From positions 1 to 25,401 of IMG/VR virus record IMGVR_UViG_2802429217_000002: a stretch of 25,401 nt of DNA; one strand, given 5' to 3'. The DNA is from a virus (Duplodnaviria; Heunggongvirae; Uroviricota; Caudoviricetes). The position numbers and the translations under genes were made by a program. Every line of letters begins with the position of its first letter. Position 1 is the first letter of the stretch. Shown here piece after piece: positions 7,491-25,401 of the stretch. The notes under the pieces are model-generated. The model worked only from the letters and a program-made list of their open reading frames with translations. It was not told where the DNA came from and did no database searches.

Positions 7491-7493
7491 TAC

Positions 7494-9487: not shown

Positions 9488-9699
9488 GCGTGATAAAAAC
9501 TCATACAGGAATTGTTATCACCCGAGACGGTGAAAAGCGAATGAAATTACATTCCACTGAAACGTCCTGGGTTGCCGGACGTTGTGAATCCTACGACAAA
9601 AAGACTGGTTACCGTTGGGGGGCACCTAACATGCGTCGCCGTCTGCTACTGGACAGCATCAGGCCAATAAAACAGGTAGCAACCAGGGAACAAAATTAA
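9484..9699 (+). CDS. Small prophage protein (YfdT-like, tentative)
   Basis: 71-aa ORF with ATGA overlap to upstream gene. Confidence 0.45.
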   Translation: MSVIKTHTGIVITRDGEKRMKLHSTETSWVAGRCESYDKKTGYRWGAPNMRRRLLLDSIRPIKQVATREQN

Positions 9700-9758
9700 T
9701 TATCAGGACTGGAATTTGATATTACTGCCCGTGTGCAGCGGGCTAAGTGGAGAAACAT

Positions 9759-9965
9759 ATGCTGAACCTCGATTGTGTTCCAATCTCAACTTATTGCAAA
9801 GAAACTGGCGAAACTCCTGAAGCAATAAACAAACGTGTACAGCGCGGTGTTTGGCGTGAAGGTGTTCAGGTTTTAAAGGTTGAAGGCGTTAAGGAGAGGT
9901 GGATTGATCTTAGTGAGGTTGCAAAATGGGCCAGACAAAACTGCTCAAACTACCGCGCGGCGTAA
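9759..9965 (+). CDS. xis: Excisionase (Xis-like)
   Basis: ATG at 9759 with GGAGAA RBS (track ORF begins at a GTG at 9747); small basic protein overlapping the int start, the classic xis-int arrangement. Confidence 0.6.
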   Translation: MLNLDCVPISTYCKETGETPEAINKRVQRGVWREGVQVLKVEGVKERWIDLSEVAKWARQNCSNYRAA

Positions 9966-11092: not shown

Positions 11093-11109
11093 TCCAAGCA
11101 TGAAACTAT

Positions 11110-11132
11110 TGGCCACAATTTGTGGCCATTTT
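11110..11132 (+). terminator. Rho-independent terminator after int (perfect 9-bp palindrome TGGCCACAA-t-TTGTGGCCA followed by TTTT)
   Basis: Palindrome at 11110-11128 followed by T-run 11129-11132. Confidence 0.5.
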
Positions 11133-11150
11133 ACGGAGCAAGATAGAAAC

Positions 11151-12884
11151 ATGGCAAATCAAATTACCAAACTAAAAAATATAAATGTTGTGAAGTTTCG
11201 CGGACTGAAAAATATAAACATCGAGTTTGGTTCTCGCCTAACTGTTATTTGTGGTAAAAATGGCACATCTAAATCCACAATTCTTGGCATTATCGCCCAA
11301 ATATTTAGCTTTACAAAGGACTTTACCAAAAACCCTGAGACTGATTTAACACAATATAAAACATTAACAAATGGCAGCTTCAAGTCAGCTTTCAGCGAAC
11401 ATTTTAGGCTTTCAGAACAATTTGATGTTCCTGGTTCAATGGACGTCAAAATTAGTGTCTATGATGGTGCATCGAACAAACATCTTGAAAAACTAACATT
11501 AGGTTTATACAGCTACAGTGACAGAGATAAATCAAGGCCTGTAGTCAGGGGAAATGATTCAATACCGGAAAAAAACCAAAGTAGAAACGTTACTCATCCT
11601 GTTATTTTTTTAAGCTTAGCACGACTTCTTCCTATTACATTAAGGACTGATTACTCAACACGGGATGTTCAGTACATCAATGAAAATTCTGATGAAATCA
11701 GAATGATGAGTAACCAACTCTTACTAAAAAACAATGGAAGCTCAGTAACAGCAACAAAAGGTACTATCGATTCAATGGTTGTCCATGGTGACAATTATGA
11801 TCACCAATCAGTATCTGTTGGTGAAGATAATGTTGGACAATTAATCCAAGCAATTTTTTCATTTAAAAGATTGAAGGAAACTTATTCTGATTATCATGGC
11901 GGAATATTGTTAATTGATGAAGCCGATGCAGGTCTTTTCCCTGCTGCACAGTTAGAGCTAATTAATATTCTAACTAAAGCAGCAAAACAATACGATCTGC
12001 AAATAATCATGACCTCGCACTCTCCATTAATAATAGAGGATATCTATAATCGTTCAAAACAAGATAGTGATAGCTTTAAAACAATATATCTTACAGACAC
12101 ATATGGAGATATTAAAACAAAGAATAATCTTTCATGGACAGATATCCACGCTGATTTACATGTTGAAACTGTAAAAATTAATGATGACATTTGTCTTCCA
12201 AAGGCAAATGTATATTTTGAAGACAAAGAAGGTTTCGACTTTTTCAAACAATTGATAACAGATCGAAAAATAAATAAAATATTAAATCCATTAGGGAATA
12301 TAAATATTAGCTGCTCTGCCATGCTTGACTTAATGGCAAGAAAAATACCAGAATTTACAGCTAAAAGCTTGATCGTCTTAGACGGTGATGTTGTTCACGA
12401 CAATAGTGCTAATGCAAAAAAAGCCAAAAAAGAAAAAAACTTATGTTTGCTTCCAAGCACCTTACCTCCAGACCAAATGATTTTTGAGTTTTTATATAAT
12501 TTACCACCTGATGATGCATATTGGGAAAATAAAAATAAATTTACAAAAGCTGTTTTTATGAAAACAGCTAAAGACATAATTGCAACGCTAAAAATTGGTA
12601 ACGCTCCGATTGATTTAAAAATCCTTATAGATAATTATAAAAAAGTTAACAAAAACCATGGCGGGATAGTTAGAAAACTGTTTAAAGATTTTGCACATAC
12701 GACTCAATTTCAGGCCCAAGTAAAAGGGCGAGTTAAAGATAACCCATATCGATATTGGGTCGAGAAAAATCCTGTGCAATCGGATAGCTTCAAGAATGAA
12801 CTAATAAAGAGTCTTAAAGTTATTATGACAAGTGGACATGGTGTCGATTCTGCTACCATCTCATCATATCTGTCAGATAACTAA
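11151..12884 (+). CDS. OLD-family nuclease: N-terminal ABC-type ATPase plus C-terminal Toprim domain
   Basis: Walker A GKNGTSKST, Walker B ILLIDEADAGLFP, H-loop TSHSP; C-terminal Toprim-like Glu (VYFEDKEGFDFF) and DxD (IVLDGDVVHD), paralleling P2 Old motifs; ATG at 11151 assumed so that the int terminator is non-coding (track ORF starts 11100); AT-rich. Confidence 0.75.
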   Translation: MANQITKLKNINVVKFRGLKNINIEFGSRLTVICGKNGTSKSTILGIIAQIFSFTKDFTKNPETDLTQYKTLTNGSFKSAFSEHFRLSEQFDVPGSMDVKISVYDGASNKHLEKLTLGLYSYSDRDKSRPVVRGNDSIPEKNQSRNVTHPVIFLSLARLLPITLRTDYSTRDVQYINENSDEIRMMSNQLLLKNNGSSVTATKGTIDSMVVHGDNYDHQSVSVGEDNVGQLIQAIFSFKRLKETYSDYHGGILLIDEADAGLFPAAQLELINILTKAAKQYDLQIIMTSHSPLIIEDIYNRSKQDSDSFKTIYLTDTYGDIKTKNNLSWTDIHADLHVETVKINDDICLPKANVYFEDKEGFDFFKQLITDRKINKILNPLGNINISCSAMLDLMARKIPEFTAKSLIVLDGDVVHDNSANAKKAKKEKNLCLLPSTLPPDQMIFEFLYNLPPDDAYWENKNKFTKAVFMKTAKDIIATLKIGNAPIDLKILIDNYKKVNKNHGGIVRKLFKDFAHTTQFQAQVKGRVKDNPYRYWVEKNPVQSDSFKNELIKSLKVIMTSGHGVDSATISSYLSDN

Positions 12885-12892
12885 TTGATTAA

Positions 12893-12929
12893 AAAGGGCT
12901 TTATGTGATGGCCACAAAGCCCTTTTTTT
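12893..12929 (+). terminator. Rho-independent terminator after OLD-family gene
   Basis: Stem gggcttt/aaagccc with 13-nt loop, followed by TTTTTTT. Confidence 0.65.
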
Positions 12930-12963
12930 GATATACTTTAGATCTGACATTTAGAGGTATCAT

Positions 12964-13863
12964 ATGCGTTTTAACACCCCACTTCGCTATCCTGGCGGTA
13001 AAGGCAAGCTTGCAAATTTCATGCTTCGGCTTATTGAAGAAAATAATCTTTCGCCTATACATTATGCCGAACCATATGCTGGGGGTGCTGGTTTAGCATT
13101 GAAACTGTTACATCTAAATGCAGCTGAAAAAATCATCCTTAATGATATTAATATTTCTGTTTATGCTTTTTGGCACAGTGTATTAAATCATGCAGATCAA
13201 TTATGTTCTTTAATTGAAAGAACTGAAGTTACAATGGATGAATGGTTTAGGCAGAAAGATATAATTAATAATCCTAAAGACCATGATCTTTTAACAATTG
13301 GTTTCTCAACCTTTTTTCTCAATAGAACAAATCGTTCTGGAATATTAAAAGGTGGAGTAATTGGCGGTAAAAATCAAGAAGGGAAATGGAAGCTTGACGC
13401 TCGCTATAATAAGAGTGATTTGATTTCTCGAATCCATAAAATATCAGAAAATCGTCACAGAATAGATTTATATAACATGGATGCAATTGATTTCATTAAA
13501 AAAATAGTTATTCAATTGCCACAAAACTCATTAACATATTTGGATCCACCTTATTACATAAAAGGTAAAGGTTTATATATCAACCATTATAATCATGATG
13601 ATCATGTTAGGGTTGCAAAAGTCGTACAGAATAATATTAAAACACCTTGGATTGTTTCTTACGATAACACTCCTGAGATCCAAGCTATGTATAAGACATC
13701 ATCATTAGTATATGGAATAAACTACAGTGCTCAAGATCGGTACAAAGGATCTGAGGTAATGTTCTTCAGTGAACGATTGAAAATCTTTAAAACAGATGAT
13801 CCAACTAAGGTAAAAGCGCCTGTATTTAAAAGAGGATGTGTTGACGACCACATCCAGACATAA
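12964..13863 (+). CDS. D12-class N6-adenine DNA methyltransferase (Dam family)
   Basis: Motifs LRYPGGKGK (Dam LKWAGGK), EPYAGGAGLAL (AdoMet binding), ILNDINISVYAFW, FFLNRTNRSG, LDPPYY (catalytic DPPY); AGAGG RBS; AT-rich. Confidence 0.85.
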   Translation: MRFNTPLRYPGGKGKLANFMLRLIEENNLSPIHYAEPYAGGAGLALKLLHLNAAEKIILNDINISVYAFWHSVLNHADQLCSLIERTEVTMDEWFRQKDIINNPKDHDLLTIGFSTFFLNRTNRSGILKGGVIGGKNQEGKWKLDARYNKSDLISRIHKISENRHRIDLYNMDAIDFIKKIVIQLPQNSLTYLDPPYYIKGKGLYINHYNHDDHVRVAKVVQNNIKTPWIVSYDNTPEIQAMYKTSSLVYGINYSAQDRYKGSEVMFFSERLKIFKTDDPTKVKAPVFKRGCVDDHIQT

Positions 13864-13935
13864 AAGGAGCCGCAAAAGATCCGCAGAATAAAATGGTTAG
13901 TATTAATCGTTTTATTTCAGCTAATTATAAAAATA

Positions 13936-13968
13936 CGGACTCGGGTTCAACTCCCGCCAGCTCCACCA
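13936..13968 (+). other. ssrA: Attachment-site core: copy of the 3'-terminal 33 nt of the tmRNA gene ssrA (cGGACtCGGGTTCAACTCCCGCCAGCTCCACCA); the rest of ssrA is absent here
   Basis: Near-identity to the known 3' end of E. coli tmRNA; upstream sequence is unrelated to tmRNA. Confidence 0.8.
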
Positions 13969-14002
13969 AATCATGATCCGGATACGTCCGGTGAAGCACA
14001 GA

Positions 14003-14036
14003 AAGCCCGCACGGCACAAGCCCTGCGGGCTTTTTT
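14003..14036 (+). terminator. Rho-independent terminator (ssrA-type trailer terminator)
   Basis: Stem gcccgca/tgcgggc with 12-nt loop followed by TTTTTT. Confidence 0.7.
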
Positions 14037-14078
14037 GTGTCTGTCGTTGTCCGAGAACATCCGGCTAAATCCAGAGAA

Positions 14079-14101
14079 AATTGGTACACGTTTAGGTACA
14101 C
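14079..14101. repeat. 23-bp direct repeat AATTGGTACACGTTTAGGTACAC, left copy (candidate integrase arm-type site / element boundary)
   Basis: Identical 23-mer recurs at 25064-25086; partial inverted copy GTGTACCAATT at 14126-14136. Confidence 0.7.
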
Positions 14102-14151
14102 GCTATACTGTGGTCCATTAAACGTGTACCAATTATGGAAGGGATCCAGAC

Positions 14152-15342
14152 ATGGCGCGTATCACACGCCCCCTCACTAACAATGAAATCCTTAAAGCCA
14201 AACCCCGTGAAAAAGACTTCACCCTTCATGATGGTGATGGCTTGTTCTTGCTCGTCAAAACCACTGGTAAAAAACTCTGGCGCTTCCGTTATCAACGACC
14301 GGGAAGCAGCAGCCGCACAAATTTGAGTCTCGGCTCATATCCTGCCCTTACACTCGCAGCAGCTCGTCAGATACGCGACCAGCACTTAACCACGCTTGCG
14401 CAAGGTATGGATCCGCAGCAGCAACAAGAGCAGGCATCAGAACAACGTCAGATTGAGTTGGATAGTATTTTCTCAACTGTGGCCGCCAACTGGTTCAAAA
14501 TGAAGAGCAAAAGTGTCACTGAAGACTACGCTAAAGATATTTGGCGCTCTTTGGATAAGGATGTGTTCCCTGCAATAGGCGCGATTCCTGTTCAGGAGAT
14601 TAAGGCCAGAACTATAGTTGAAGCGTTGGAACCAATCAAAGCACGAGGTGCATTAGAAACTGTTCGTCGCTTGGTCCAGCGCATTAACGAAATAATGATT
14701 TACGCAGTTAACACAGGCCTGATTGATGCTAATCCGGCATCGGGTGTCGGAATGGCATTTGAGAAACCGAAAAAGCAAAACATGCCGACACTTCGACCAG
14801 AAGAATTGCCAAAGCTCATGCGCTCTTTGGTGATGTCGAATCTCTCAGTTTCGACCCGCTGTCTAATTGAATGGCAACTCCTGACGCTCGTGCGTCCATC
14901 TGAGGCTTCTGGCGCTCGGTGGGTAGAGATCGATCTTGATGCCAGGCTCTGGACAATTCCAGCAGAGCGGATGAAAGCAAATCGAGAGCATATCGTTCCT
15001 TTATCAACCCAGGCGTTAGAAATTTTGGAAGTAATGAAGCCTATTAGTGCTCATCGTGAACATGTCTTCCCCAGTAGAAATGATCCCAAACAGCCAATGA
15101 ATAGCCAGACGGCGAACGCTGCCTTAAAGCGGATTGGTTATGGTGGAAAGTTGGTTGCACATGGTTTACGTTCAATTGCGAGTACAGCTATGAACGAGGC
15201 GGGATTCAATGCTGACGTCATTGAGTCTGCTCTAGCACACTCTGATAGAAATGAAGTTAGAAGAGCTTATAATCGTTCTACATATCTAGATAAAAAAATA
15301 ATACTATTTAACTGGTGGGGTGCACAGGTCTATAAGAAGTAA
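14152..15342 (+). CDS. int: P4-type tyrosine integrase (CP4-57 IntA-like)
   Basis: 396-aa ORF; N-terminus MARITRPLTNNEILKAKPREKDFTLHDGDGLFLLV typical of P4-family integrases; located about 180 nt downstream of the ssrA 3' end as intA is in E. coli K-12. Confidence 0.85.
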   Translation: MARITRPLTNNEILKAKPREKDFTLHDGDGLFLLVKTTGKKLWRFRYQRPGSSSRTNLSLGSYPALTLAAARQIRDQHLTTLAQGMDPQQQQEQASEQRQIELDSIFSTVAANWFKMKSKSVTEDYAKDIWRSLDKDVFPAIGAIPVQEIKARTIVEALEPIKARGALETVRRLVQRINEIMIYAVNTGLIDANPASGVGMAFEKPKKQNMPTLRPEELPKLMRSLVMSNLSVSTRCLIEWQLLTLVRPSEASGARWVEIDLDARLWTIPAERMKANREHIVPLSTQALEILEVMKPISAHREHVFPSRNDPKQPMNSQTANAALKRIGYGGKLVAHGLRSIASTAMNEAGFNADVIESALAHSDRNEVRRAYNRSTYLDKKIILFNWWGAQVYKK

Positions 15343-15346
15343 ATAG

Positions 15347-15366
15347 AGCCTGCTGAAATGCAGGCT
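15347..15366. terminator. Hairpin between convergent int and hotspot gene (possible bidirectional terminator)
   Basis: Stem agcctgc/gcaggct with 6-nt loop; weak T-runs on both sides. Confidence 0.4.
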
Positions 15367-15374
15367 CCACTTCT

Positions 15375-18011
15375 TTATTCAGTAAATATTACATCATCAA
15401 TATTAAAAGACACTTTAAAATTAGGGTAGAGTTTCAATATTACCTTTTCGAAAATCTCATCATCATCATTTAAATTTCTTGCTCTTGAATAAAGACGGTA
15501 ATTATCTTTTGTTATTTGTTTAATTTCGATATGACAAGCATCATTACTATCAAAGCCTCTAAAGAAGGTAAAACTATCCAAACTTACAGCATAAATATTA
15601 TTCAAGGCATTTTCGTCCTCAAAGAAGTAAGTTAACTTATAATCCTTATAAACTTCATAATTATAGTTCTTAACTGAATTTTTATTCACAAATAATATAT
15701 AATTACTCTTCTCTATATCAGCATCATTAAATTTTAAAAAACGCCCTCCTGCTTTGACACAATTGAATAATTGCTGCTTATATATAGATATGATTCCATC
15801 GCCATATAGCCCAGCACTTGATAAATATGAAACATCATCAACCACGCCTAAAAACTCACGTTTTGATGGATAAAAAATTAGTTCACTTGTTTTATGGCAT
15901 ATAGGAAGCTTGGATAAATCAACATTTAATGTACTAACAAGCCATTTATTTAAATGTAAATTCACATCTATTTTAAAGCGTAATACAATGTTCTTATCCA
16001 TTGTCGATTTTATAACTTTTCTCGTAACTTCTTTGCTCTTATACTCCAACATCATATCAAATTTATCTTTAATTAAATCCACTTCCCTTTTCACTTCATT
16101 ATTATCATACCCCATAGATGTTACCATTATATCTAATTCAGGAGACTCACACGCTTTAATTAGCAGGTGATAGTCGTTAGAACTAAATCCCACCACATCG
16201 ACTAATTTACGCCAGTCGTACAAGTATCTCAGGTTAAACCCTCTACGTTTTACAGCCAAAACCAATAATATAAAGACTAATGCTCTTATTGCATAGTGAT
16301 ATTCTGTAACAGTATAGGCCTCACCTTCCGGGAGATTTCTAATTCGTTGTTCATCTATACTTGCACGAATTCTTTCTTCATAAGAACCAAATAACATTCC
16401 ATATAACTCAATTTCATCTGTATAATTAGAAAAGATAGCAAGATCGCTCCACAATTTGCTAGCATTAATTATCGCATCGATCTCCACGTCACTTTTATTG
16501 TCAGTTTGAATTGCGCTCCAACGCATCTGAAGAACAGTTAAAACAAACCGCTGAATTTTAAATATAACAGAAATAATTTCGCTAGCATTTCTTTTTTCTA
16601 AATTCAAATACTTGACACTAAGATGCTTAGTTCCTGCATTAAAGTAATCCCCCCAAAACATTATCGCACTGTAATCTAACTCATTGCATGCAGATTCAAT
16701 CAACCCTTTAATGACTTCATAATAGTCTGCGTTATCATCGTGATAACTCAAATAACTATTCAAGGTATCTTCATGATTTTTGATAAAAGCATTAAAGTCA
16801 TCTCTATTTAAAGAGAGTTTTGCTATCTGTATTATAAATTCTAACGCGGCAGTTTTCTTTCTAAGATTAACATTCAACTCAGAAAAATTATTCATTAACT
16901 CATCAATAGAATTTTTTTTCACATCCGAATTATTTAAATATTGATATGACAGTCCAAAAGCTATATCAAAAGGATATGCTGAAACATCCCCATTAACTAA
17001 GCATGAAAAAACATTAATAGCATTTCTTATTGACTCTCTGTTATTTTCCAAAAGAGCACTATACAGATAGATGACAACCCCATTAATTAATTCATCATAA
17101 TGATTAATCACTTTAAATTCATTATCTGTTATTAACACACCAACAATCAAAGAAGAAACTTTCTTTGATGATTTTTTATCCAAAATTTTTTTAGCCGTAT
17201 AATTAACTTCTATAGTTTTGCTTCCACTACTATGCAGGTTAATATTTGGCACAATAATTTCATATTCATCCAATAAACCTTTTATCTTCATTCCATTTAA
17301 AAAATTGTTTAGTTTATGGAATTTCTCTAAATCTATGTCAACAGTCAAAACATTATCACCCCCATATATCCCTATGCTATATGGTTGTTGCTTTTGCATT
17401 TTCATTTTGCCATAAGAATAATATCCATTTGGTAAATCTCTAACTAGATTTAAAATCTTATCATGTAATTCAGAGTTAGCATCCTCTAACAAGGTATAAC
17501 CCTTGACAAGACTTGAGCAGTGAGATTGTAAATACTCAACAGCGAAGTTCTTATTACGTGACATGTTAAATAATTTCAAGTATGTTTTAAAATACTTCAA
17601 AAGAAAATACATTGATAGTAATTGTGACACCACATACTGAGCAATACCACCACCAAAAACAAAAAAGAAGAATGAAATTATCAAGGTTGATATTGCATCA
17701 ATACCAAACTGCACAAGGTTGATTTCATCCAGTATCTTTTTCCTAATATAACTTTCCAACGCATGAGGTGAGGATTTATTAACAGCATCAACAGTCACAC
17801 TCATAAAAGTTAATGACAACGCACTGATTGTACCGTGTATACCTAAGGAGACCCCCCAAGCACTAAATATCCAATCAAACCCCAATTTTTTTAAATCACT
17901 AGAATTAGAAAACAACCACCACCACTCATTTTTACAAAAAAAAACAAGAATACATAAAGTAAAAAAAATAAAAAAACCAGAGATATAACAAAACAATCTT
18001 TTACCCATCAT
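15375..18011 (-). CDS. Uncharacterised 878-aa protein with N-terminal transmembrane segments; hotspot cargo, candidate anti-phage defense protein
   Basis: Uninterrupted ORF; AAGGA RBS; N-terminal hydrophobic stretches (FCYISGFFIFFTLCILVFF, WIFSAWGVSLGIHGTISALSLTFM, AISTLIISFFFFVFGGGIAQYVV); very AT-rich versus the GC-rich P4 core genes; lies between int and cos where P4 carries gop/beta/cII. Confidence 0.7.
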   Translation of the reverse strand: MMGKRLFCYISGFFIFFTLCILVFFCKNEWWWLFSNSSDLKKLGFDWIFSAWGVSLGIHGTISALSLTFMSVTVDAVNKSSPHALESYIRKKILDEINLVQFGIDAISTLIISFFFFVFGGGIAQYVVSQLLSMYFLLKYFKTYLKLFNMSRNKNFAVEYLQSHCSSLVKGYTLLEDANSELHDKILNLVRDLPNGYYSYGKMKMQKQQPYSIGIYGGDNVLTVDIDLEKFHKLNNFLNGMKIKGLLDEYEIIVPNINLHSSGSKTIEVNYTAKKILDKKSSKKVSSLIVGVLITDNEFKVINHYDELINGVVIYLYSALLENNRESIRNAINVFSCLVNGDVSAYPFDIAFGLSYQYLNNSDVKKNSIDELMNNFSELNVNLRKKTAALEFIIQIAKLSLNRDDFNAFIKNHEDTLNSYLSYHDDNADYYEVIKGLIESACNELDYSAIMFWGDYFNAGTKHLSVKYLNLEKRNASEIISVIFKIQRFVLTVLQMRWSAIQTDNKSDVEIDAIINASKLWSDLAIFSNYTDEIELYGMLFGSYEERIRASIDEQRIRNLPEGEAYTVTEYHYAIRALVFILLVLAVKRRGFNLRYLYDWRKLVDVVGFSSNDYHLLIKACESPELDIMVTSMGYDNNEVKREVDLIKDKFDMMLEYKSKEVTRKVIKSTMDKNIVLRFKIDVNLHLNKWLVSTLNVDLSKLPICHKTSELIFYPSKREFLGVVDDVSYLSSAGLYGDGIISIYKQQLFNCVKAGGRFLKFNDADIEKSNYILFVNKNSVKNYNYEVYKDYKLTYFFEDENALNNIYAVSLDSFTFFRGFDSNDACHIEIKQITKDNYRLYSRARNLNDDDEIFEKVILKLYPNFKVSFNIDDVIFTE

Positions 18012-18119
18012 TCGTCCTTATGTTTTTTGGGTATTGTAAACCAAAGATAAAACCCTCTATGGTTTTGCATGCCCTGTATATTGATTTGTGTAAATTAGCT
18101 CATTACCAATTAGCGCGCA

Positions 18120-18138
18120 ATGCTCTCCCCGCCACGCC
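18120..18138. other. cos-like site (reverse complement GGCGTGGCGGGGAGAGCAT, 16/19 match to the P2/P4 cohesive end GGCGAGGCGGGGAAAGCAC as I recall it)
   Basis: Read from the sequence; located next to psu as in P4. Confidence 0.5.
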
Positions 18139-18236
18139 TGCCCGCTTAAGAGGTCACTTTTAATGCAGGTGCATGACCCGACTCAGGCCGCGCCGGTACT
18201 GGTGTTGCGTGGGATAAAAAATACGAGGATTTGCAT

Positions 18237-18272
18237 GCAAAACCATGCACCTTATGGATGCATGGCTTTTTT
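18237..18272. terminator. Bidirectional rho-independent terminator downstream of psu
   Basis: Stem ccatgca/tgcatgg, 9-nt loop, flanked by AAAA and TTTTTT. Confidence 0.55.
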
Positions 18273-18312
18273 CAGAAAAAATAGCGGAATTTTCGGGTTT
18301 TTTTTTTGCGTG

Positions 18313-18879
18313 CTACCGTGCGGCCAGTTCTGCACGTCGGCGGGTGTAAATCAGGTTCTGTGCCGGGGTGAATTTCTGGCGATTATCATCCCGCGAGGCC
18401 GCATCAGGCCTGAATCCGATAGCCGTTAAAATGTCGCTGTCCTGCGCGGAATAATTAATTTTTTCACCTGCGGCCAGCCACACCGACAGGGCTTCACGCA
18501 GATAATCAACCGAGTGCTGCATGGCGCTCTGTTTTACTGCGGGAATTTGTTCGTGATATCCCATCAGCTCAGGCGCCAGCGTGGCGGCCAGATCCGCGCC
18601 GTGCTGCTGCATAAAGTCATGGAGCCGGTTGCGGATGCTGATGTGCTGCACTTCCTCATGTGAGCGGATATAGCGACCGGCAGCCTGATTAATCACCCAT
18701 TTTTTCACGTCGATATTGTCGCGCAAATCCTGCATTCTGCGCGGGATTTGTTCGTCACCAGCAAGGAGCTGTTCACGGTATTCAAGCTCAAGGTCAGCCA
18801 GTTCGGCTTTACGTTTCAGCCAAGTGTTTTTGTTCGTCTGACAGGCCTCAAAGGCCTGCTGCAATGTCACAGTGGTCAC
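18313..18879 (-). CDS. psu: Polarity suppression protein Psu
   Basis: 188-aa ORF; MTTVTLQQAFEAC..., YIRSHEEVQHISIRNRLHDFMQQHG, KINYSAQDSDILTAIGFRPD closely parallel P4 Psu as I recall it. Confidence 0.85.
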   Translation of the reverse strand: MTTVTLQQAFEACQTNKNTWLKRKAELADLELEYREQLLAGDEQIPRRMQDLRDNIDVKKWVINQAAGRYIRSHEEVQHISIRNRLHDFMQQHGADLAATLAPELMGYHEQIPAVKQSAMQHSVDYLREALSVWLAAGEKINYSAQDSDILTAIGFRPDAASRDDNRQKFTPAQNLIYTRRRAELAAR

Positions 18880-18894
18880 GTGTCTCTCTCCTGA

Positions 18895-19134
18895 TTAATG
18901 CCGGAACGGCGAGCTGTAGCAGCCCTGTACTTTACGCGGCGGCGGTGGCGTCACCGGTGCGGGGTCGGTTTTTTCCGGTGCGGCACGTATCACACCGTCA
19001 ACCGACTCGATGGTGCGGAAAGTGGCCGAGCATTCGATATTGGTACACTGGTGATAACGTTGTTTGACGTTTTCCGACAGATAACGGCTGGTACGGACGT
19101 GCGCGGTCTTTTTGCAGAACGGACAGTGAAACAT
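18895..19134 (-). CDS. delta: Ogr/Delta-family zinc-finger late transcription activator
   Basis: 79-aa ORF MFHCPFCKKTAHVRTSRYLSENVKQRYHQCTNIECSATF matches the P2 Ogr CxxC...CxxC motif. Confidence 0.85.
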   Translation of the reverse strand: MFHCPFCKKTAHVRTSRYLSENVKQRYHQCTNIECSATFRTIESVDGVIRAAPEKTDPAPVTPPPPRKVQGCYSSPFRH

Positions 19135-19137
19135 AAT

Positions 19138-19881
19138 TCAGCCCTCTGCCTGTTCGTGGTCTTTTGCGGCCAGTTCAGCGGCAAGCTTCATCCGTCTGGC
19201 GGGGCTTCTTAACAGCGCCATATCAACCCCGGTTATGACCGGGCGATTCATGCCCGTTACGGACAGAACCGGTTCCTGCTCCATATCGAAATGATACAGG
19301 GCTGACTGTAGATTCAGGGCATCGCCCAGCTCGCGGGTCACGGTCGCACGCGGCGAGGTTTCTCCGCTCATTTCCAGCGACCGTATACGCAACAGGAAGG
19401 CACGTAACAGTGCAGGGCTGATACCGGCCAGCACTTTCTTCCATTCGCTGTTGGCGTAAGTGGTGAATGCTTTTTCGTGGGCGCTGATATAAGCCGTACC
19501 GGAGGAGCATGCGCCAAGCATGGCGAGGCCTTTGTCTTTCTCCAGCTCGGTAATCAGACCGGTGAACTCATCAGCCAGTTCTCGGCTGGCGATACGTTTA
19601 CTGTGTTCAGCTTTCAGTTCAGGAGTGAGGTTGCCGCGCAGGGTTCGAAAGCGGCTGCGCCAGTCCTGTTCGGCCTGTGCGCTTTCACTGAGGGCAGTCT
19701 GTCGTTCCTGCTCACAACGCTGAATGGAAGCCTCAATGTCGCTGAGTTTACCCATGCTGGCCGTGTGTGCGTCTTTTGCTTCGTTAAGTGCGGCCAGCGC
19801 ACCGGCAATACGTTGTTCCGCGCCTTCATCCTGTTTACTGATAACGGTCTGCATGGCTTTGATAATGAGTTCGGGTTTCAT
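19138..19881 (-). CDS. sid: Capsid size determination protein Sid (P4-like)
   Basis: Position upstream of delta and psu in one operon; coiled-coil-like Ala/Glu-rich sequence; ATG at 19881 with GGAGAG RBS preferred over 19947 because the late-promoter activator site sits at 19954-19971. Confidence 0.7.
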   Translation of the reverse strand: MKPELIIKAMQTVISKQDEGAEQRIAGALAALNEAKDAHTASMGKLSDIEASIQRCEQERQTALSESAQAEQDWRSRFRTLRGNLTPELKAEHSKRIASRELADEFTGLITELEKDKGLAMLGACSSGTAYISAHEKAFTTYANSEWKKVLAGISPALLRAFLLRIRSLEMSGETSPRATVTRELGDALNLQSALYHFDMEQEPVLSVTGMNRPVITGVDMALLRSPARRMKLAAELAAKDHEQAEG

Positions 19882-19904
19882 GTTCAGGCTCTCCGTGTGT
19901 TCAA

Positions 19905-19971
19905 CCTGAAATGATTCTGACGCCTCCTGCACAACAACACGATTCATTGCCGTTGTCAGAGTGCTGGCACA
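19905..19971 (-). promoter_or_regulatory. P4 Psid-type late promoter with Ogr/Delta binding site TGT-N12-ACA
   Basis: TGT(19954-19956)-N12-ACA(19969-19971) dyad; its centre lies about 56 nt upstream of the predicted start, with a -10-like CAGAAT. Confidence 0.6.
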
Positions 19972-20050
19972 AACAGACCTTAAAATCAGGCTGGCCAGAG
20001 AAGGGTCGCAGGAAAACCTTACTCACCGTTTGTTTTTTTGCTTATAACTA

Positions 20051-20170
20051 TTCACCACTGTTCACCCTAAATAAAAAGATAAGCGATACAGTAAGTTAAA
20101 GGGTGAATAGTTGAGGGTCTGACTGTTCACCGTCTGTTCACCACTGTTCACCCTTCACTTTGTGAAGCCA
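20051..20170. repeat. Cluster of TGTTCACC octamers (P4 alpha-protein type I iteron motif), candidate ori
   Basis: TGTTCACC at 20124, 20135, 20145 plus variants at 20051-20067 and GGTGAATAG at 20101. Confidence 0.55.
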
Positions 20171-20244
20171 GTCAACCTATTAGATTTTTTAGCGATTAAA
20201 AAAACAGAAGTATATAAACAAAAGTAATCAGCAATGGGCCACCG

Positions 20245-20283
20245 GTTTGCCAACGTTTGCCAAAAAACGGCCAACGTTTGCCA
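20245..20283. repeat. Three copies of GTTTGCCA (two as GCCAACGTTTGCCA) upstream of alpA; candidate regulator-binding repeats
   Basis: Copies at 20245-20252, 20255-20262, 20276-20283, followed by TATAAA. Confidence 0.35.
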
Positions 20284-20422
20284 CTGTATAAAAATCGCTC
20301 TGTTGTGTGGTGGAGTACTACAAAATGACTTGTTGCCCTGAGGGAAAATATTCACAAAATAGAGAGCTACCCGAAGCCGGACGGACACGACCGGCACTGT
20401 ATGGACTTTGTGAGGTAGCCCG

Positions 20423-20689
20423 ATGCACACCGCTTTTTCTTCCCCGTCTTCTACCCCTGCCGCGCCGCTGATGCCGGTTTCTGATACCGTTCACGAACGC
20501 TTTATCCGTCTGCCCGAAGTGATGCATCTGTGCGGCCTGTCCCGCTCGACCATTTACGACCTCATCAGCCGGGAAGCCTTCCCGAAACAAATCTCCCTCG
20601 GCGGGAAAAATGTGGCGTGGGCGCAGTCTGAAATCACTGCATGGATGGCGGATCGCATTGCCGAACGTAACCGGGGCTATGACGCATGA
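20423..20689 (+). CDS. alpA: AlpA-family phage regulatory protein / excisionase
   Basis: [55 protein letters not shown] matches the AlpA/Vis HTH family; GAGG RBS. Confidence 0.7.
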
Positions 20690-21027
20690 TGATGACCGTT
20701 CAGCAAACAGCCCCTTTTTCTGGCTTGCTTCTTTTCGCCGTTTCCAGGTATAGTTTTCCCGCTGTCGCAAAATCGGCAGCCGGGCGTAGGAACCCGTGTT
20801 TAACTATGGCGACACCGGACGCGCCTTGCGTCTTTTTTTGTGTCTGTGCCTTGATGCACCCATTCAATACACAGTGGCCTTTTCGCCATTGTGGGTATCG
20901 CGTAATGGTGGCTCAGGCGGGGCAGCCTTCGGGCTGGCCGGTTCTCATAGTTACCGGTATTCCTACCCCCGTCTGGGCTACCACCCATGAGCGTAGGAAC
21001 TCCGATGGTAGCTGTAACCAGCTAACT

Positions 21028-21237
21028 ATGGAGGTTGCCCTTATGGCTATGACCCTCACCCCGTCACACCCGCAGTTTGTCTTTGTGTTTGCCGCCGTTC
21101 GTCGCGCAGACCGTAAACCCCGTATTTGCATGCTGCGCACCGTTGCCGGTGACGAGCACGCCGCACGCCTTTCCCTCGTTCGCGATTACATCCTCTCGTT
21201 CGCTGGCCGTTTGCCGGTTCTGGAGGTGCGCGCATGA
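21028..21237 (+). CDS. Small hypothetical protein of the P4-like early operon (tentative)
   Basis: Internal ATG of track ORF 20686-21237; upstream part of that ORF looks non-coding (repeats and hairpins). Confidence 0.3.
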
Positions 21238-21461
21238 GACACACCACCATTACCGCCCGTGACCTCGAATGCCTTGAGCATATGCGCAATGTCGGCCAGC
21301 TCGTCAATGAGCTGATGCAGGTGCAGGATTGCGCCACCGTTCGTCGTGACCCGGCGCAGCAGTTACAGCTCACCTCCGTGATTTACCTCATGACCGCCCA
21401 GCTCGACGGCGTGGTCGAACGCTGCAATCAGCAGTGGCTGACCGGGGAGGGTAACGTATGA
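21234..21461 (+). CDS. Hypothetical protein (position of P4 epsilon-like gene)
   Basis: 75-aa ORF overlapping neighbours by 4 nt on both sides, indicating operon coupling. Confidence 0.45.
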
Positions 21462-21778
21462 AACAGCCATTACCGCCCGTATTACGCGCCGCGCAGTATC
21501 GTCGCGCCGTGGCCTGTGCATGGCTGACCCTGTGCGAACGCCAGCACCGCTACCCGCACCTCACCCTCGACGCGCTGGAAAGCGCCATTGCCGCCGAGCT
21601 GGAGGGCTTTTACCTGCGCCAGCACGGCGAGGAAAAAGGCCGCCAGATTGCCTGTGCCCTGCTCGAAGATTTAATGGAAGCCGAACCACTCAAGGCCGCG
21701 CCGTCGCTGTCCTTTCTCGGGCTGGCCGTGATGGATGAACTCTGCGCCCGTCATATCACCGCACCGGCACTGCACTGA
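21458..21778 (+). CDS. Hypothetical protein upstream of alpha primase
   Basis: 106-aa ORF, translationally coupled to the upstream gene. Confidence 0.5.
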
Positions 21779-21789
21779 GGGAGAACACC

Positions 21790-24123
21790 ATGAAAATGAA
21801 CGTAACGGACACCGTAAAACAGGCGTGCGGCCACTGGCCGCGCATTCTCCCGGCGCTGGGGGTAACGGTCATCAAAAACCGCCATCTGACCTGTCCGGTG
21901 TGTGGCGGCTCCGACCGCTTTCGCTTTGACGATAAAGAGGGACGCGGGACGTGGTTCTGCAATCAGTGCGGCGCGGGTGACGGGCTTAAGCTGGTAGAAA
22001 AAGTGTTTGGCGTGACCCCGTCAGAGGCGGCCGGGAAGGTGAACGCCGAGACCGGCAACCTGCCGCCGGTTGCCCCGGAAGTGATTGCGGTCGCAGAGGC
22101 TGAAACGGAGGCCGACCGCAAAGCGGCGGCCACGCTGGCCGTCAGGCTCATGGAGAAAACCCGACCAGCCACCAGCAATGCCTACCTCACCTGCAAGGGT
22201 TTCCCCGCTCTGGAATGTCTGACGCTCACCGCCATGCATAAAACCGGCGGCGTGACGTTCCGCGCCGGGGATGTGGTTGTCCCGCTGTATGACAATACCG
22301 GCGTACTGGTTAACCTTCAGCTTATCAATGCAGACGGTCTCAAACGCACCCTGAAAGGCGGGCAGGTCAAAGGGGCATGTCATATCATCGAAGGGAAAAA
22401 ACAGGCCGGAAAACGCCTGTGGATTGCGGAGGGTTATGCGACCGCGCTCACCGTGCATCACCTGACAGGGGAAACCGTCATGGTGGCGCTGTCCTCCGTG
22501 AACCTCCTTTCTCTGGCAAGCCTTGCCCGTCAGAAATATCCGGCCTGTCAGATTGTCCTGGCCGCCGACCGTGACCTTAACGGCGACGGCCAGAGTAAAG
22601 CCGCTGCGGCCGCAGATGCCTGTGAGGGCATTGTTGCCCTGCCGCCGGTGTTCGGTGACTGGAATGATGCGTTTATGCAGAAAGGTGAAGAAGCCACCCG
22701 GAAAGCCATTTATGACGCCATCCGGCCACCGGCGCAAAGTCCGTTCGACACCATGAGCGAGGCGGAATTTACCGCCATGAGCGCCAGCGACAAGGCTTTG
22801 CGGGTGCATGAGCACTACAGCGAAGCGCTGGCGGTGGATGCTAACGGCCAGCTCCTGTCCCGCTATGAAAACGGCATCTGGAAAAATATCCCTGCCGCCA
22901 CTTTTTCACGGAATGTGGCTGATTTATTCCAGCGCCTGCGCGCCCCGTTCTCGTCAGGGAAAATTGCCTCGGTGGTCGAGACCCTGAAACTGATTATTCC
23001 GCAGCAGGATACACCGGCGCGCCGTCTGATTGGCTTTCGCAATGGGGAACTCGATACCCAAAGTGGCCTGTTCAGCCCGCACAGTAAATCGCACTGGCTG
23101 CGCACGCTGTGCGACGTGGATTTCACCCCGCCGGTGGACGGAGAAACGCTGGAGACTTACGCGACGAACTTCTGGCGCTGGCTCGACCGTGCGGCCGGTA
23201 AAAATCCCCAAAAACGCGATGTGATTCTGGCTGCGCTGTTTATGGTGCTGGCGAACCGCTACGACTGGCAGCTCTTTCTCGAAGTCACCGGTCCCGGCGG
23301 GAGCGGCAAAAGTATTCTGGCCGAAATCGCGACCCTGCTCGCCGGGGAAGATAATGCCACGTCAGCCGATATCGACACACTGGAAGACCCGCGCAAGCGT
23401 GCCTCCCTGATTGGCTTCTCGCTAATCCGTCTGCCAGACCAGGAAAAATGGAGCGGTGACGGCGCAGGACTCAAGGCCATCACCGGCGGCGATGCAGTTT
23501 CAGTTGACCCGAAATACCAGAATCCGTACTCAACGCATATTCCGGCGGTGATTCTGGCCGTGAACAATAACCCGATGCGCTTCACCGACCGCAGCGGCGG
23601 CGTCTCCCGTCGCCGGGTGATTATTCATTTCCCGGAGCAGATTGCCCCGGAGGAACGCGACCCGCAGCTCAGGGATAAAATTGCACGCGAGCTGGCCGTC
23701 ATCGTGCGCCAGCTTATGCAGAAATTCAGCGACCCGATGACCGCGCGCGCACTGCTCCAGTCGCAGCAGAACTCCGACGAGGCACTCAGCATTATGCGCG
23801 ATGCTGACCCGACGTTTGATTTTTGCGGCTATCTGGAGATGCTCCCGCAGACCAACGGGATGTTTATGGGGAATGCCAGCATCATCCCGCGTAATTATCG
23901 TAAATATCTCTATCATGCGTATCTGGCCTATATGGAGGCTAACGGATACAGGAACGTGCTCAGCCTGAAAATGTTCGGGCTGGGGCTGCCCATGATGCTG
24001 AAAGAGTACGGCCTGAATTATGAGAAGCGGCACACCAAGCAGGGGATACAAACCAACCTGTCGCTGAAAGAGGAAAGCTACGGCGACTGGCTGCCGAAGT
24101 GTGACGCCCCCACAGCGACATAA
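21790..24123 (+). CDS. alpha: P4 alpha-type bifunctional DNA primase/helicase
   Basis: 777-aa ORF; N-terminal zinc-binding CPVCGG...CNQCG, central toprim-like region, C-terminal P-loop VTGPGGSGKS; length matches P4 alpha as I recall it. Confidence 0.9.
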   Translation: MKMNVTDTVKQACGHWPRILPALGVTVIKNRHLTCPVCGGSDRFRFDDKEGRGTWFCNQCGAGDGLKLVEKVFGVTPSEAAGKVNAETGNLPPVAPEVIAVAEAETEADRKAAATLAVRLMEKTRPATSNAYLTCKGFPALECLTLTAMHKTGGVTFRAGDVVVPLYDNTGVLVNLQLINADGLKRTLKGGQVKGACHIIEGKKQAGKRLWIAEGYATALTVHHLTGETVMVALSSVNLLSLASLARQKYPACQIVLAADRDLNGDGQSKAAAAADACEGIVALPPVFGDWNDAFMQKGEEATRKAIYDAIRPPAQSPFDTMSEAEFTAMSASDKALRVHEHYSEALAVDANGQLLSRYENGIWKNIPAATFSRNVADLFQRLRAPFSSGKIASVVETLKLIIPQQDTPARRLIGFRNGELDTQSGLFSPHSKSHWLRTLCDVDFTPPVDGETLETYATNFWRWLDRAAGKNPQKRDVILAALFMVLANRYDWQLFLEVTGPGGSGKSILAEIATLLAGEDNATSADIDTLEDPRKRASLIGFSLIRLPDQEKWSGDGAGLKAITGGDAVSVDPKYQNPYSTHIPAVILAVNNNPMRFTDRSGGVSRRRVIIHFPEQIAPEERDPQLRDKIARELAVIVRQLMQKFSDPMTARALLQSQQNSDEALSIMRDADPTFDFCGYLEMLPQTNGMFMGNASIIPRNYRKYLYHAYLAYMEANGYRNVLSLKMFGLGLPMMLKEYGLNYEKRHTKQGIQTNLSLKEESYGDWLPKCDAPTAT

Positions 24124-24131
24124 CCTCACTC

Positions 24132-24156
24132 AGACCGGCAACAGCCGGTCTTTTCC
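24132..24156 (+). terminator. Rho-independent terminator after alpha
   Basis: Stem agaccggc/gccggtct, 4-nt loop, followed by TTTTCC. Confidence 0.6.
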
Positions 24157-24174
24157 TTTCTGGCCATTGCCACA

Positions 24175-24440
24175 GGGTGAACAATCCACTGTTCACCCTT
24201 CACCGTATATTCACCCTGTATCACCATGAAATTATTGATAAAAAACCATAGGTGAACAGTGTGAACAGTAAAACCTAAAAAAACTTTTTATCCCTCCACC
24301 ACATCGCCTGACCGGGCGCATCCAGAGCGAGAAAAAATCACAAAGGTGAAGAGTCGACTGTTCACTCTTCACCAACTCATCACCATTTATCTTTATGATT
24401 TAAAATAGAAAATAAGCATGGTGAACAGTGTGAACAGTTA
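24175..24440. repeat. crr-like iteron region: multiple TGTTCACC/GGTGAACA octamers including an about 45-bp direct repeat
   Basis: GGGTGAACAatccacTGTTCACCC (24175-24204), GGTGAACAGTGTGAACAG at 24251-24268 and 24423-24440, inverted GGTGAAGAG/CTCTTCACC at 24344-24372. Confidence 0.6.
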
Positions 24441-24564
24441 AATGTAAAAAAACTTTTTTTGAGTATGATGTAGCTCTCCATACTTTATGGAAAGATCCAA
24501 GTTAGCTGAAAGCCTCACCAAGACAGCACGTTAATTCGTAACGTGTTAAGCAAAAGGGAATTTT

Positions 24565-25065
24565 ATGGGGACTACTTTGCTTCAAGAAAACCATGAAAAA
24601 ATTTTAAACATACTAAATGAAGCTAAAGATGTGGCGCTAAGGTATTACAAACTAACCAATAAGCCTCTCGGAATCACTGGAGAAATAGCTGAACATGAAG
24701 CTGCAACTCTTCTCGGGTTGTCACTATGTTCAGCACGTCAGTCCGGATACGATGCGACTGAGATTTTGGACGGGAAAGAATATAGAGTTCAAATCAAAGG
24801 TCGATATATGCCTGATCCTAAAAAAGTCTCTGCGAGAATTGGTGCTATTGATATAGCTAAGCCATTTGATTCTGTTCTTTTAGTTTTGCTTGATGAAAAT
24901 TATGATGCTTTTGCCATGTATGAAGCATCACGAGATGTAGTAGTCGCAGCTCTTCAAGCTCCGGGGTCAAAGTCTAGAAATGAGCGAAATCAGCTAGGCA
25001 TAGCAAAATTCAAGTCCATTAGCCGTCTCCGCTGGAGCAAGGATGTTGAACCTGAGATCCTTTAA
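24565..25065 (+). CDS. Hypothetical 166-aa protein, AT-rich cargo at right end of the satellite
   Basis: ORF with GGGAA SD-like sequence; no confident motif (possible D...QIK nuclease-like signature); ends 1 nt before the right 23-bp repeat. Confidence 0.5.
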   Translation: MGTTLLQENHEKILNILNEAKDVALRYYKLTNKPLGITGEIAEHEAATLLGLSLCSARQSGYDATEILDGKEYRVQIKGRYMPDPKKVSARIGAIDIAKPFDSVLLVLLDENYDAFAMYEASRDVVVAALQAPGSKSRNERNQLGIAKFKSISRLRWSKDVEPEIL

Positions 25066-25086
25066 TTGGTACACGTTTAGGTACAC
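25064..25086. repeat. 23-bp direct repeat AATTGGTACACGTTTAGGTACAC, right copy
   Basis: Identical to 14079-14101. Confidence 0.7.
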
Positions 25087-25145
25087 AACTGAAAGTTGAA
25101 TACGAAAAAATCCTTTATATTTAAAGCATTGAGTAATTTATTCAG

Positions 25146-25174
25146 ACTCCGCCAGCAATCATGATTGGACGGTG
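25146..25174 (+). other. Degenerate copy of the ssrA 3' end plus trailer (ACTCCGCCAGC-AATCATGATTGGACGGTG), candidate right att of the satellite
   Basis: Aligns to 13950-13993 with a 1-nt and a 7-nt deletion and a few mismatches. Confidence 0.4.
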
Positions 25175-25286
25175 CAAGGACAACACCAACAAAAACAGGA
25201 AGTTAGAAGTCTCAGCAAGACACCGACCAGACGGTGAGGAGACATAAAAGGATACGCAAAGGAGCCGCGGCTCCTGGTGATATGAA

Positions 25287-25308
25287 AGCCCACAGATGTG
25301 GGCTTTTT
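25287..25308. terminator. Hairpin terminator (agcccaca/tgtgggct followed by TTTTT)
   Basis: Located between the satellite right end and the convergent downstream gene. Confidence 0.5.
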
Positions 25309-25316: not shown

Positions 25317-25401
25317 GTCAGAACGACCAGTTCACACCAGCCACCGCGTTCCACGGGGATTCCACACCGGCACCATGGCTATACCCCACCCCGAGATGCC
25401 C
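25317..25401 (-). CDS. 3' end of a gene truncated by the window edge; encoded C-terminus ...GVNWSF resembles an outer-membrane beta-barrel / autotransporter terminus
   Basis: Minus-strand translation of the last 84 nt ends ...SPWNAVAGVNWSF-stop, with aromatic-x-aromatic C-terminal Phe. Confidence 0.35.

Follow-up and report, generated by a model that had tools for sequence, protein, structure and literature searches.

We analysed a window of 25,401 nucleotides (nt), positions 1 to 25,401 of the virus record IMGVR_UViG_2802429217_000002. Comparison with the strains KMi029 and K-12 placed it in the Escherichia coli chromosome, in the interval between ssrA, the gene for transfer-messenger RNA (tmRNA), and ypjA. 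Very probably, two unrelated mobile elements are arrayed in tandem here at the 3′ end of ssrA, namely an SfV-like temperate phage and an 11.2-kb P4-type satellite, and we hold with high confidence that the window is the right-hand portion of this two-element array, which runs from ssrA to ypjA. From left to right, it contains the end of the prophage with its xis, int and cargo genes, a displaced ssrA fragment, a near-complete satellite of the P4 family, a degenerate ssrA end, the trailer that usually follows ssrA, and ypjA.

Two elements in tandem at the 3′ end of ssrA

In a tandem array as treated in Islander, each member possesses its own integrase and its own displaced fragment of the target tRNA or tmRNA gene (tDNA), lying in the orientation of that gene. 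The two integrase genes of the window (9926–11092 and 14152–15342) belong to different families, and the two ssrA fragments (13936–13968 and 25141–25157) are both on the plus strand. With a separate integrase and a separate ssrA fragment for each element, the arrangement is a tandem array by definition. Intact upstream tDNA would lie beyond the window here; in the relative LZYWN_4, an intact copy stands at the equivalent position. The features at the junctions are as follows.

13936–13968, plus strand: displaced ssrA 3′ fragment, comprising the prophage attR core (exact at 13942–13968) and the putative satellite attL core (CCGCCAGC, 13954–13961); identified by ssrA identity and a truncated tmRNA match
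13969–14151, plus strand: satellite P′ arm, nearly identical behind intact ssrA in KMi029 and PSS-16 and absent from empty sites; its parts are a replacement ssrA terminator (14018–14032 and T-run), putative tandem arm sites (14079–14101), a putative inverted arm site (14119–14134) and a promoter-like sequence (14081–14109)
25064–25086, plus strand: satellite P arm with two putative tandem arm-type integrase sites (the second copy of a 23-mer), placed as in P4, 70 nt ahead of the end of CCGCCAGC
25141–25157, plus strand: degenerate ssrA end, the putative satellite attR core and equivalent of K-12 psaA; it reads TTCAGACTCCGCCAGCA, with CCGCCAGC at 25149–25156
25158–25308, plus strand: usual ssrA trailer of ~125 nt (25158–25283) with its terminator (stem 25288–25303, T-run 25304–25308), contiguous with ssrA at empty sites
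25318–25401, minus strand: 3′ end of ypjA (adhesin-like autotransporter), as annotated at the homologous position of K-12 and KMi029

Positions 13936–13968 read CGGACTCGGGTTCAACTCCCGCCAGCTCCACCA and correspond to the last 33 nt of E. coli ssrA with 32 identities. The single mismatch, T13941 for G, leaves an exact ssrA block of 27 nt (13942–13968). The fragment also matches GGTTCAACTCCCGCCAGCTCCACCA exactly (25/25), the duplicated 25-bp sequence at which the record of Citrobacter phage phiNP is cut. No tmRNA was found in the window by ARAGORN, or by Rfam at the gathering score, and a local search with the Rfam tmRNA model was confident only for a 5′-truncated 3′ end, the last ~35 nt, ending at 13968 (28 bits). 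A preliminary description, made from the letters of the window, had reported an ssrA 3′ end at this place that is preceded by a prophage and not by the rest of tmRNA, and this reading holds. It had also noted a P4-type integrase at the canonical spacing; the gene starts at 14152, 184 nt past CCA, and the same 184 nt separate it from intact ssrA in KMi029.

Alignment to an empty ssrA locus had been suggested as a check along with alignment to a tmRNA model. We used a chimera of the ssrA 3′ part, the trailer and ypjA as the query against 5,426 complete E. coli genomes, the set to which all genome counts below refer. At least 80% of the chimera was matched in 1,385 of them, and 17 of 20 among the matches listed were a single uninterrupted piece with 100% identity. 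The empty site has the structure ssrA-CCA-ATCATGATTGG...terminator-ypjA and is free of the 23-mer that flanks the satellite.

Each element is also found on its own, at ssrA in other genomes or as a free phage. The satellite stands without the prophage, directly behind intact ssrA, in E. coli KMi029, E2, MB20, PKF8 and PSS-16; the order in KMi029 is smpB, ssrA, P4-type int, cargo, psu, delta, sid, alpA, icd-like, DUF5375, primase, DUF6998 and ypjA. In LZYWN_4, the same prophage begins at intact ssrA and reaches, ~40 kb further on, the same displaced fragment, behind which there is again a P4-type integrase, and the same prophage end precedes further, different P4-type left ends in other genomes. 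The free phages LLS and phiNP carry an ssrA 3′ end of 25–30 nt in attP, and the LLS record has a tmRNA pseudogene annotated there. The satellite-only strains, the LZYWN_4 prophage and the ssrA ends in the phage attP sites all agree with the earlier proposal that a lambdoid phage integrated into ssrA upstream of a resident P4-like satellite. The exact pairing of this prophage with this satellite occurred in 0 of the 5,426 genomes; the nearest ones have the same prophage before other P4-type left ends, or this satellite directly after ssrA. In K-12, the same site is occupied by the cryptic prophage CP4-57, and the degenerate copy, directly before ypjA, is annotated as the pseudogene psaA (b4645).

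Tandem islands at the tmRNA gene have already been described (Islander, PMC4383910). The window resembles the known tandem tDNA islands in that no integrase or displaced tDNA fragment is shared between the elements, the newest element would adjoin the intact gene, and integrases of two subfamilies target the 3′ end of one gene. We found no essential difference, and the window is one more instance. Tandem islands at this gene are reportedly also the subject of 'Traffic at the tmRNA gene' (Williams, 2003). P4-like satellites and the CP4-57/ssrA junction are likewise known, as are tandem islands at ssrA, and little in the arrangement as such is new.

Two other genomes showed different arrays. In E. 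coli Z1323PEC0011, the gene immediately before the P4-type int belongs to the SIR2 family and is not ssrA. In ETEC1732, which has a different array at the same site, the match to the window begins at precisely 13942, where the exact ssrA block starts.

Attachment sites of the satellite

The 23-mer AATTGGTACACGTTTAGGTACAC occurs exactly twice in the window, at 14079–14101 and 25064–25086, with 0 matches in shuffled sequences; the exact 23-bp repeat flanking the satellite was thus correctly noted in the preliminary description, from which an inverted copy of 16–17 nt at 14119–14134/5 was missing. That description had left undecided which repeat is the crossover core and which the arm-type site. 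Four independent lines of evidence point to the ssrA copies as the cores and indicate, by analogy and co-variation, that the 23-mer consists of two arm-type integrase sites in tandem. In the GenBank record of P4, the feature 'attP arm sequence repeat' comprises two tandem 12-mers on each arm and an inverted copy at the int start codon, and these repeats surround a core of 20 bp, formed by the end (3′) of the tRNA gene that P4 targets. When the satellite attP was reconstructed across CCGCCAGC, the near edge of the arm pair was 110 nt (int side, P′) and 77 nt (P) from the CCA end, versus 112 and 72 nt in P4. All parts of the P4-type attP architecture were found, that is, a core at the 3′ end of an RNA gene, two tandem repeats on each arm and an inverted copy at the start of int. 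The empty sites contain neither the 23-mer nor the 110 nt between CCA and the 23-mer; therefore, both belong to the satellite. In the satellite-only strains, intact ssrA is joined directly to the same P′ arm.

The arm motif varies among elements and is the same on both arms of any one element. It is GGTACAC in the window, KMi029, PKF8 and PSS-16, GGTATAC in MB20 and in LZYWN_4 (where only the int-side arm is left), GGCCCA/GGACCA in K-12 and GGGGGCA in P4. The integrases of the GGTACAC elements are 95–97% identical to the integrase (Int) of the window satellite in residues 1–95, and those of the GGTATAC elements are 65–66% identical to it in these residues and 86–88% identical in the remainder. 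This pattern suggests that the arm motif tracks the N-terminal arm-binding domain of Int and that the remainder of the protein recognises the unchanged ssrA core. The sequence TWGGTACAC occurs six times in the window, against 0.19 expected, and five of the six are at the arms.

The sixth exact copy, TTGGTACAC at 19040–19048, lies within delta, far from the att arms, and may be there by chance. The P4 record also has one annotated arm repeat far from the att arms, inside int. A sigma-70-like promoter (TTGGTA-17-TATACT, 14081–14109) overlaps both tandem arm sites just upstream of int. P4 Int has been reported to repress its own promoter, and by analogy the overlap would let the satellite Int do the same.

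At the right junction, the ssrA-like copy at 25141–25157 has lost TCCACC (6 nt) relative to ssrA, and AACTCCC is changed to AGACTCC. It is followed from 25158 by ATCATGATTGGACGG..., the usual ssrA trailer. The preliminary description had placed a deleted and mutated ssrA copy with its trailer at 25146–25174; the copy is real and is both deleted and mutated, but its coordinates are now 25141–25157, with the trailer beginning at 25158. The left site, attL (AACTCCCGCCAGCTCCACCA), and the right site, attR (AGACTCCGCCAGC......A), have only CCGCCAGC in common, at 13954–13961 and 25149–25156. The left half of attR, ATTCAGACTCCGCCAGC, was identical in every satellite examined, CP4-57 included. The bases between GCCAGC and the trailer are CCACCA, CCCCCA or CCCA according to strain, and a single A in the window. 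An intact P4-type attR (…GCCAGCTCCACCA-ATCATG / TCCACCA) was found in 0 of the 5,426 genomes; the best match had a 1-nt gap or mismatch at T357, and all examples lose or alter T357. Since no right junction has an intact TCCACCA, the right junction appears to be old and decaying. The loss of T357 points either to a junction that has long been inherited vertically or to selection for junctions with costly excision.

The position of the crossover can be considered on the basis of CP4-57, whose junction in K-12 (intA/alpA, pseudogene psaA) has been described (Kirby et al. 1994; Wang et al. 2009; PMC10107115). According to PMC10107115, citing Wang 2009, CP4-57 excision in K-12 deletes just U357 of tmRNA, immediately 3′ of ...CGCCAGC. 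The same U, that of the G·U wobble, is reportedly lost on excision of the P4-like CP4So of Shewanella (PMC5148205). Because CP4-57 excision removes only U357, the exchange is placed in or just left of CCGCCAGC. By analogy, the crossover segment of the window satellite is most likely CCGCCAGC, immediately 5′ of U357.

The satellite and CP4-57 share the ssrA–ypjA site, a P4-type integrase 184–204 nt past CCA, the arm-repeat layout, the attR left half ATTCAGACTCCGCCAGC, the trailer and ypjA. However, CP4-57 is a decayed island of 22 kb that has none of the P4 genes for morphogenesis and replication, it has GGCCCA/GGACCA as the arm motif, and its attR lacks T357 only, whereas the attR of the window lacks TCCACC. 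CP4-57 adjoins live ssrA in K-12, so that its excision damages tmRNA, whereas the window satellite adjoins a dead fragment.

Order of events and alternative readings

From the observed anatomy, homologies, empty site, arm geometry and co-variation of the arm motif with the Int domain, the following course of events can be proposed. The satellite Int would recombine inside the last 15 nt of ssrA, and the element would extend from ~13954 to 25156. The N-terminal domain of Int would position the protein on attP via five TWGGTACAC sites, three on the int side (a tandem pair and an inverted copy) and a tandem pair on the opposite side, and in the integrated state the two tandem arm pairs would end up at opposite ends of the satellite. 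The predicted satellite attP is ...TAGGTACAC-(70 nt)-CCGCCAGC|TCCACCAAATCATGATCC...., and the predicted chromosomal scar after satellite excision is ...CTCCCGCCAGC|AATCATGATTGG.... On integration, the satellite would have restored ssrA with a new 3′ end, trailer and terminator, and the old ssrA end (25141–25157) would have been displaced to the right junction, where it then decayed. Later, an SfV-like phage with an unrelated integrase of the Arm-DNA-bind_2 type would have entered the last 25–27 nt of live ssrA and moved the satellite, together with the 27-nt exact ssrA fragment, ~40 kb downstream.

The exact cleavage positions, the present ability of either element to excise and the order of arrival are inferred. 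Most probably, the satellite was resident first and the phage came later. The phage adjoins the live gene, and the nearest element is the newest; the satellite attR is, moreover, of the old degenerate type that is general in E. coli. Both points argue for the later arrival of the phage. With the phage now between the satellite and live ssrA, excision of the satellite should leave U357 of the functional tmRNA in place.

The reverse order, in which the prophage came first and the satellite later used the displaced fragment at the prophage attR as a secondary attB, is improbable. A single genome gives no direct reading of the order of arrival, and the displaced fragment retains all 27 nt, including CCGCCAGCTCCACCA, and would be a competent target. 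However, a satellite that arrived last should have a fresh attR with intact TCCACCA by the trailer, whereas the actual attR is degenerate, as in E. coli generally, and an intact P4-type attR was seen in none of the 5,426 genomes. The same prophage module before several P4-type left ends also speaks for repeated phage entry at live ssrA upstream of resident satellites. The idea that both elements move together as one composite unit, with the outer sites recombining, is hardly credible: each element occurs alone at ssrA elsewhere, or as a free phage, each has a separate integrase and ssrA fragment, and the exact pairing is absent from all 5,426 genomes. What can be said for it is that the intact ssrA end at the far left and attR at 25149–25156 could in principle be recombined by the satellite integrase, which would remove both elements.

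It is also very improbable that the 23-bp repeat itself is the crossover core (attL/attR) of the satellite, in which case the ssrA fragment would belong to the prophage only and the element would run from 14079 to 25086. The 23-mer is indeed the longest exact direct repeat that flanks the satellite, and the ssrA-like copy on the right is badly degraded. A core should, however, have a copy in the empty sites, and there is none; the 110 nt from CCA to the 23-mer are satellite DNA, variable among satellites and absent from empty sites. A third, inverted copy is present at 14119–14134, the geometry equals that of the annotated P4 arm repeats, and the motif co-varies with the N-terminal domain of Int while the ssrA core stays constant. 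In addition, according to PMC10107115, CP4-57 excision in K-12 changes ssrA itself.

Several points weigh against our preferred reading, a satellite inserted at ssrA through CCGCCAGC and a phage inserted after it. The intact ssrA of this genome lies beyond the window. Binding of Int to the 23-mer is proposed by analogy and co-variation, and the crossover position is transferred from CP4-57, the Int of which is 57% identical. The core-type site on the right is mostly lost with TCCACC; therefore, the satellite may no longer excise. No excision junctions (attP/attB) of the satellite or the prophage were observed. Moreover, epsilon, one of the seven P4 'core components', gave no blastp match to P4 epsilon at E ≤ 1e-3. 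P4-like elements that lack one core component are still placed in the family as 'Type B' (PMC8628076).

Gene content of the two elements and the ssrA trailer

The satellite measures 11,195 bp from CCGCCAGC at 13954 to CCGCCAGC at 25149, versus 11,624 bp for P4. Its features are listed below.

14152–15342, plus strand: P4-type tyrosine integrase (Pfam Arm-DNA-bind_3, Phage_int_M, Phage_integrase)
15375–18011, minus strand: cargo gene for a protein of 878 amino acids (aa) in the int–cos hotspot, GC ~0.30 (PHROGs of unknown function only)
18120–18138, minus strand: cos cohesive end of the P2/P4 type (16/19 identical to P4 GGCGAGGCGGGGAAAGCAC; 0.01 expected by chance)
18313–18879, minus strand: psu (Pfam Psu, 3.5e-87)
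18895–19134, minus strand: delta (Pfam Ogr_Delta, 8.6e-21)
19138–19947, minus strand: sid (phrog_6165 at 8e-79; P4 Sid, E 8e-26)
19931–20153, plus strand: ori-like DNA (aligns to P4)
20423–20689, plus strand: vis/alpA (Pfam Phage_AlpA, 3e-20)
20686–21237, plus strand: Ash/Icd-like open reading frame (ORF) (Pfam Phage_ASH)
20761–20838, plus strand: immunity leader (Rfam isrK model, 70.6 bits)
20901–20988, plus strand: CI RNA (Rfam C4, 82.3 bits, gathering score 45; aligns to the P4 cI locus)
21458–21778, plus strand: orf106 homologue (90% protein identity to P4)
21790–24123, plus strand: alpha primase-helicase (84% to P4 alpha over 775 aa; Pfam primase/Toprim/D5 domains)
24176–24289 and 24345–24458, plus strand: two crr repeats (direct-repeat family D1; align to P4 crr)
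24565–25065, plus strand: second cargo gene, DUF6998 (Pfam DUF6998; PADLOC mREase_II, a type II methyl-directed restriction enzyme model, 6e-99)

Protein identity to P4 is 36% for int (over 399 aa, E 1e-85; 57% to K-12 IntA), 64% for psu, 43% for delta, 29% for sid, 69% for vis/alpA (orf88), 69% for the cI-region ORF, 90% for orf106 and 84% for alpha. The genes psu, delta and sid are adjacent on one strand, and the blastn alignment to the right end of P4 stops right at cos, at window position 18140, which is P4 position 11623. The control region (19931–21237, plus strand) is 69–78% identical to P4 positions 8180–9533 by blastn/blastp. Membership in the P4 satellites is indicated by an integrase by att, the psu-delta-sid genes, alpha with crr/ori, AlpA/Vis, cos by psu and the CI RNA; epsilon is the component that was not found, and orf151 of P4 is also absent.

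The satellite thus shares with P4 (NC_001609) and the P4-like family (Moura de Sousa & Rocha 2021, PMC8628076; Rousset et al. 2022, PMC9122126) the gene order int, hotspot, cos, psu-delta-sid, vis/alpA, CI RNA, orf106, alpha, crr and att. The likeness extends to the size (11.2 vs 11.6 kb), the cos sequence (16/19), the hotspot cargo between int and cos, and an attP that consists of a tDNA 3′-end core with 2+1 and 2 arm-type repeats at the same distances. However, P4 targets leuX and the window satellite ssrA, the arm motif is TTGGGGGCAT in P4 and TWGGTACAC here, the delta of the window satellite is a short single-domain form, and the stretch from crr to the P arm, empty of genes in P4, contains the DUF6998 cargo.

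The position between int and cos is the P4 defence hotspot (PMC9122126, PMC8628076). The 878-aa ORF is the sole gene in this hotspot of the satellite, and it is also found behind ssrA in E. coli E2, where the DNA is 99.7% identical. The protein had no informative match in Pfam, NCBIfam, PADLOC and PDB sequence searches; it matched phrog_18005 (1.8e-23) and phrog_10073, both of unknown function. It is a candidate for an uncharacterised single-gene anti-phage system. The stop codon of the DUF6998 gene (25063–25065) overlaps the first arm-type site. This second cargo position, from crr to the P arm, holds another gene or none in MB20, PKF8 and PSS-16.

Positions 1–9478 of the window are 96% identical to the early region of phage SfV and contain a Q antiterminator and an S24 repressor. 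The similarity ends at 9478; SfV has another integration module and inserts at thrW. At its right end, the prophage contains the following features.

9747–9965, plus strand: excisionase gene xis of the SfV-like prophage (phrog_2917, E 1.6e-45), directly upstream of int as in phiNP and LLS
9926–11092, plus strand: prophage integrase of the Arm-DNA-bind_2/DUF3596 type, transcribed toward att (Pfam Arm-DNA-bind_2, Phage_integrase)
11100–13863, plus strand: low-GC cargo between int and att, an ABC/AAA ATPase (11100–12884) and a D12 N6-adenine methyltransferase (12964–13863) (Pfam AAA_15/AAA_21, MethyltransfD12)

The integrases of Citrobacter phage phiNP and Escherichia phage LLS are, respectively, 94% and 86% identical to the prophage integrase. 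Both phages share with the window the order xis-int-cargo-attP and a trailer-like P′ arm in attP; the att-adjacent cargo of LLS is, however, unlike that of the window prophage. The cargo of the latter has a GC content of 0.32–0.36. The ATPase gave PtuA/GajA-like PADLOC matches and matched phrog_3940 (2e-200), and the methyltransferase matched PADLOC PD-Lambda-5_B (5e-124); PD-Lambda-5_A was absent from the best 25 of the 113 PADLOC families matched by the ATPase. The pair also follows int in phiNP and LZYWN_4, and several E. coli prophages keep it.

Every phage copy of the ssrA end has a mismatch just upstream of GGTTCAAC, which places the phage exchange within the last 25–27 nt of ssrA. Overlapping parts of the same 25 nt are therefore used by two integrase families. 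The LZYWN_4 prophage has an HK97-type head and a contractile tail; the window prophage, its relative, is thus not P2-like, and no helper relationship to the satellite is expected. The target site is expected to be the only thing that the two elements have in common.

A direct similarity of 29 nt (25/29) links 13856–13884 in the prophage P arm with 25240–25268 in the ssrA trailer (AGACATAAAAGGA..CGCAAA.GA.CCGC); an estimated ~5e-4 such matches would occur by chance. The P-arm copy is located at −113 from CCA in the window, in LZYWN_4 and, more weakly, in phiNP, and the motif was not recognisable in phage LLS nor in four other attR junctions. We considered these sequences as arm-type sites of the prophage Int and did not adopt this assignment, as the motif was not recognisable in those five. 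The similarity may represent arm-type sites of the Arm-DNA-bind_2 integrase or a recombination scar.

The terminator hairpin of the trailer was read directly from the sequence; with a loop of only 2 nt, it was missed by a consensus scan. The trailer, at empty sites and at 25158–25283, is by reading 90–95% identical to the P′ arms of LLS and the prophage in LZYWN_4, with a lower value for phiNP. A 49-nt trailer pattern was found at 21 loci of a species-representative genome set, in about ten genera of Enterobacterales, including Escherichia, Klebsiella, Raoultella, Leclercia, Enterobacter, Trabulsiella, Pseudenterobacter, Erwinia and Mixta, and in two records whose labels place them outside the order. 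The pattern invariably lay right after intact ssrA or a whole or degraded ssrA 3′ end, and what came next was usually cargo of phage type, for example AbiTii, SRAP, DUF4236, a P22 antirepressor domain or the C-terminus of a tail fibre. Two trailer hairpins show some compensatory change (pairs 18–26 and 55–83, alignment A1). The covariation is modest, with three pairs changed on both sides in an alignment that is partly fixed by the search pattern. As a candidate for a known RNA family, the trailer had no Rfam match.

The trailer could belong to the tmRNA precursor as a structured element at its 3′ side, which phages would have to replace, or it could be the fossil P′ arm of a phage that became fixed in E. 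coli. We tentatively put forward, while considering it rather unlikely, the joint idea that the trailer is a conserved structured module of chromosomes and of the attP of ssrA phages across Enterobacterales and that the right junctions lacking U357 act as an addiction device. If this were true, a U357-less junction would make excision cripple tmRNA, and the phage insertion in the window would uncouple the addiction through the dead fragment.

The result is a precise map of a textbook situation in which two integrase families compete for the last 25 nt of ssrA. The satellite boundaries, ~13954 to 25156 (11.2 kb), are now usable for annotation. The practical value of the array lies in its cargo, that is, the 878-aa hotspot gene, the methyl-directed restriction-like gene, and the ATPase and methyltransferase pair of the prophage.

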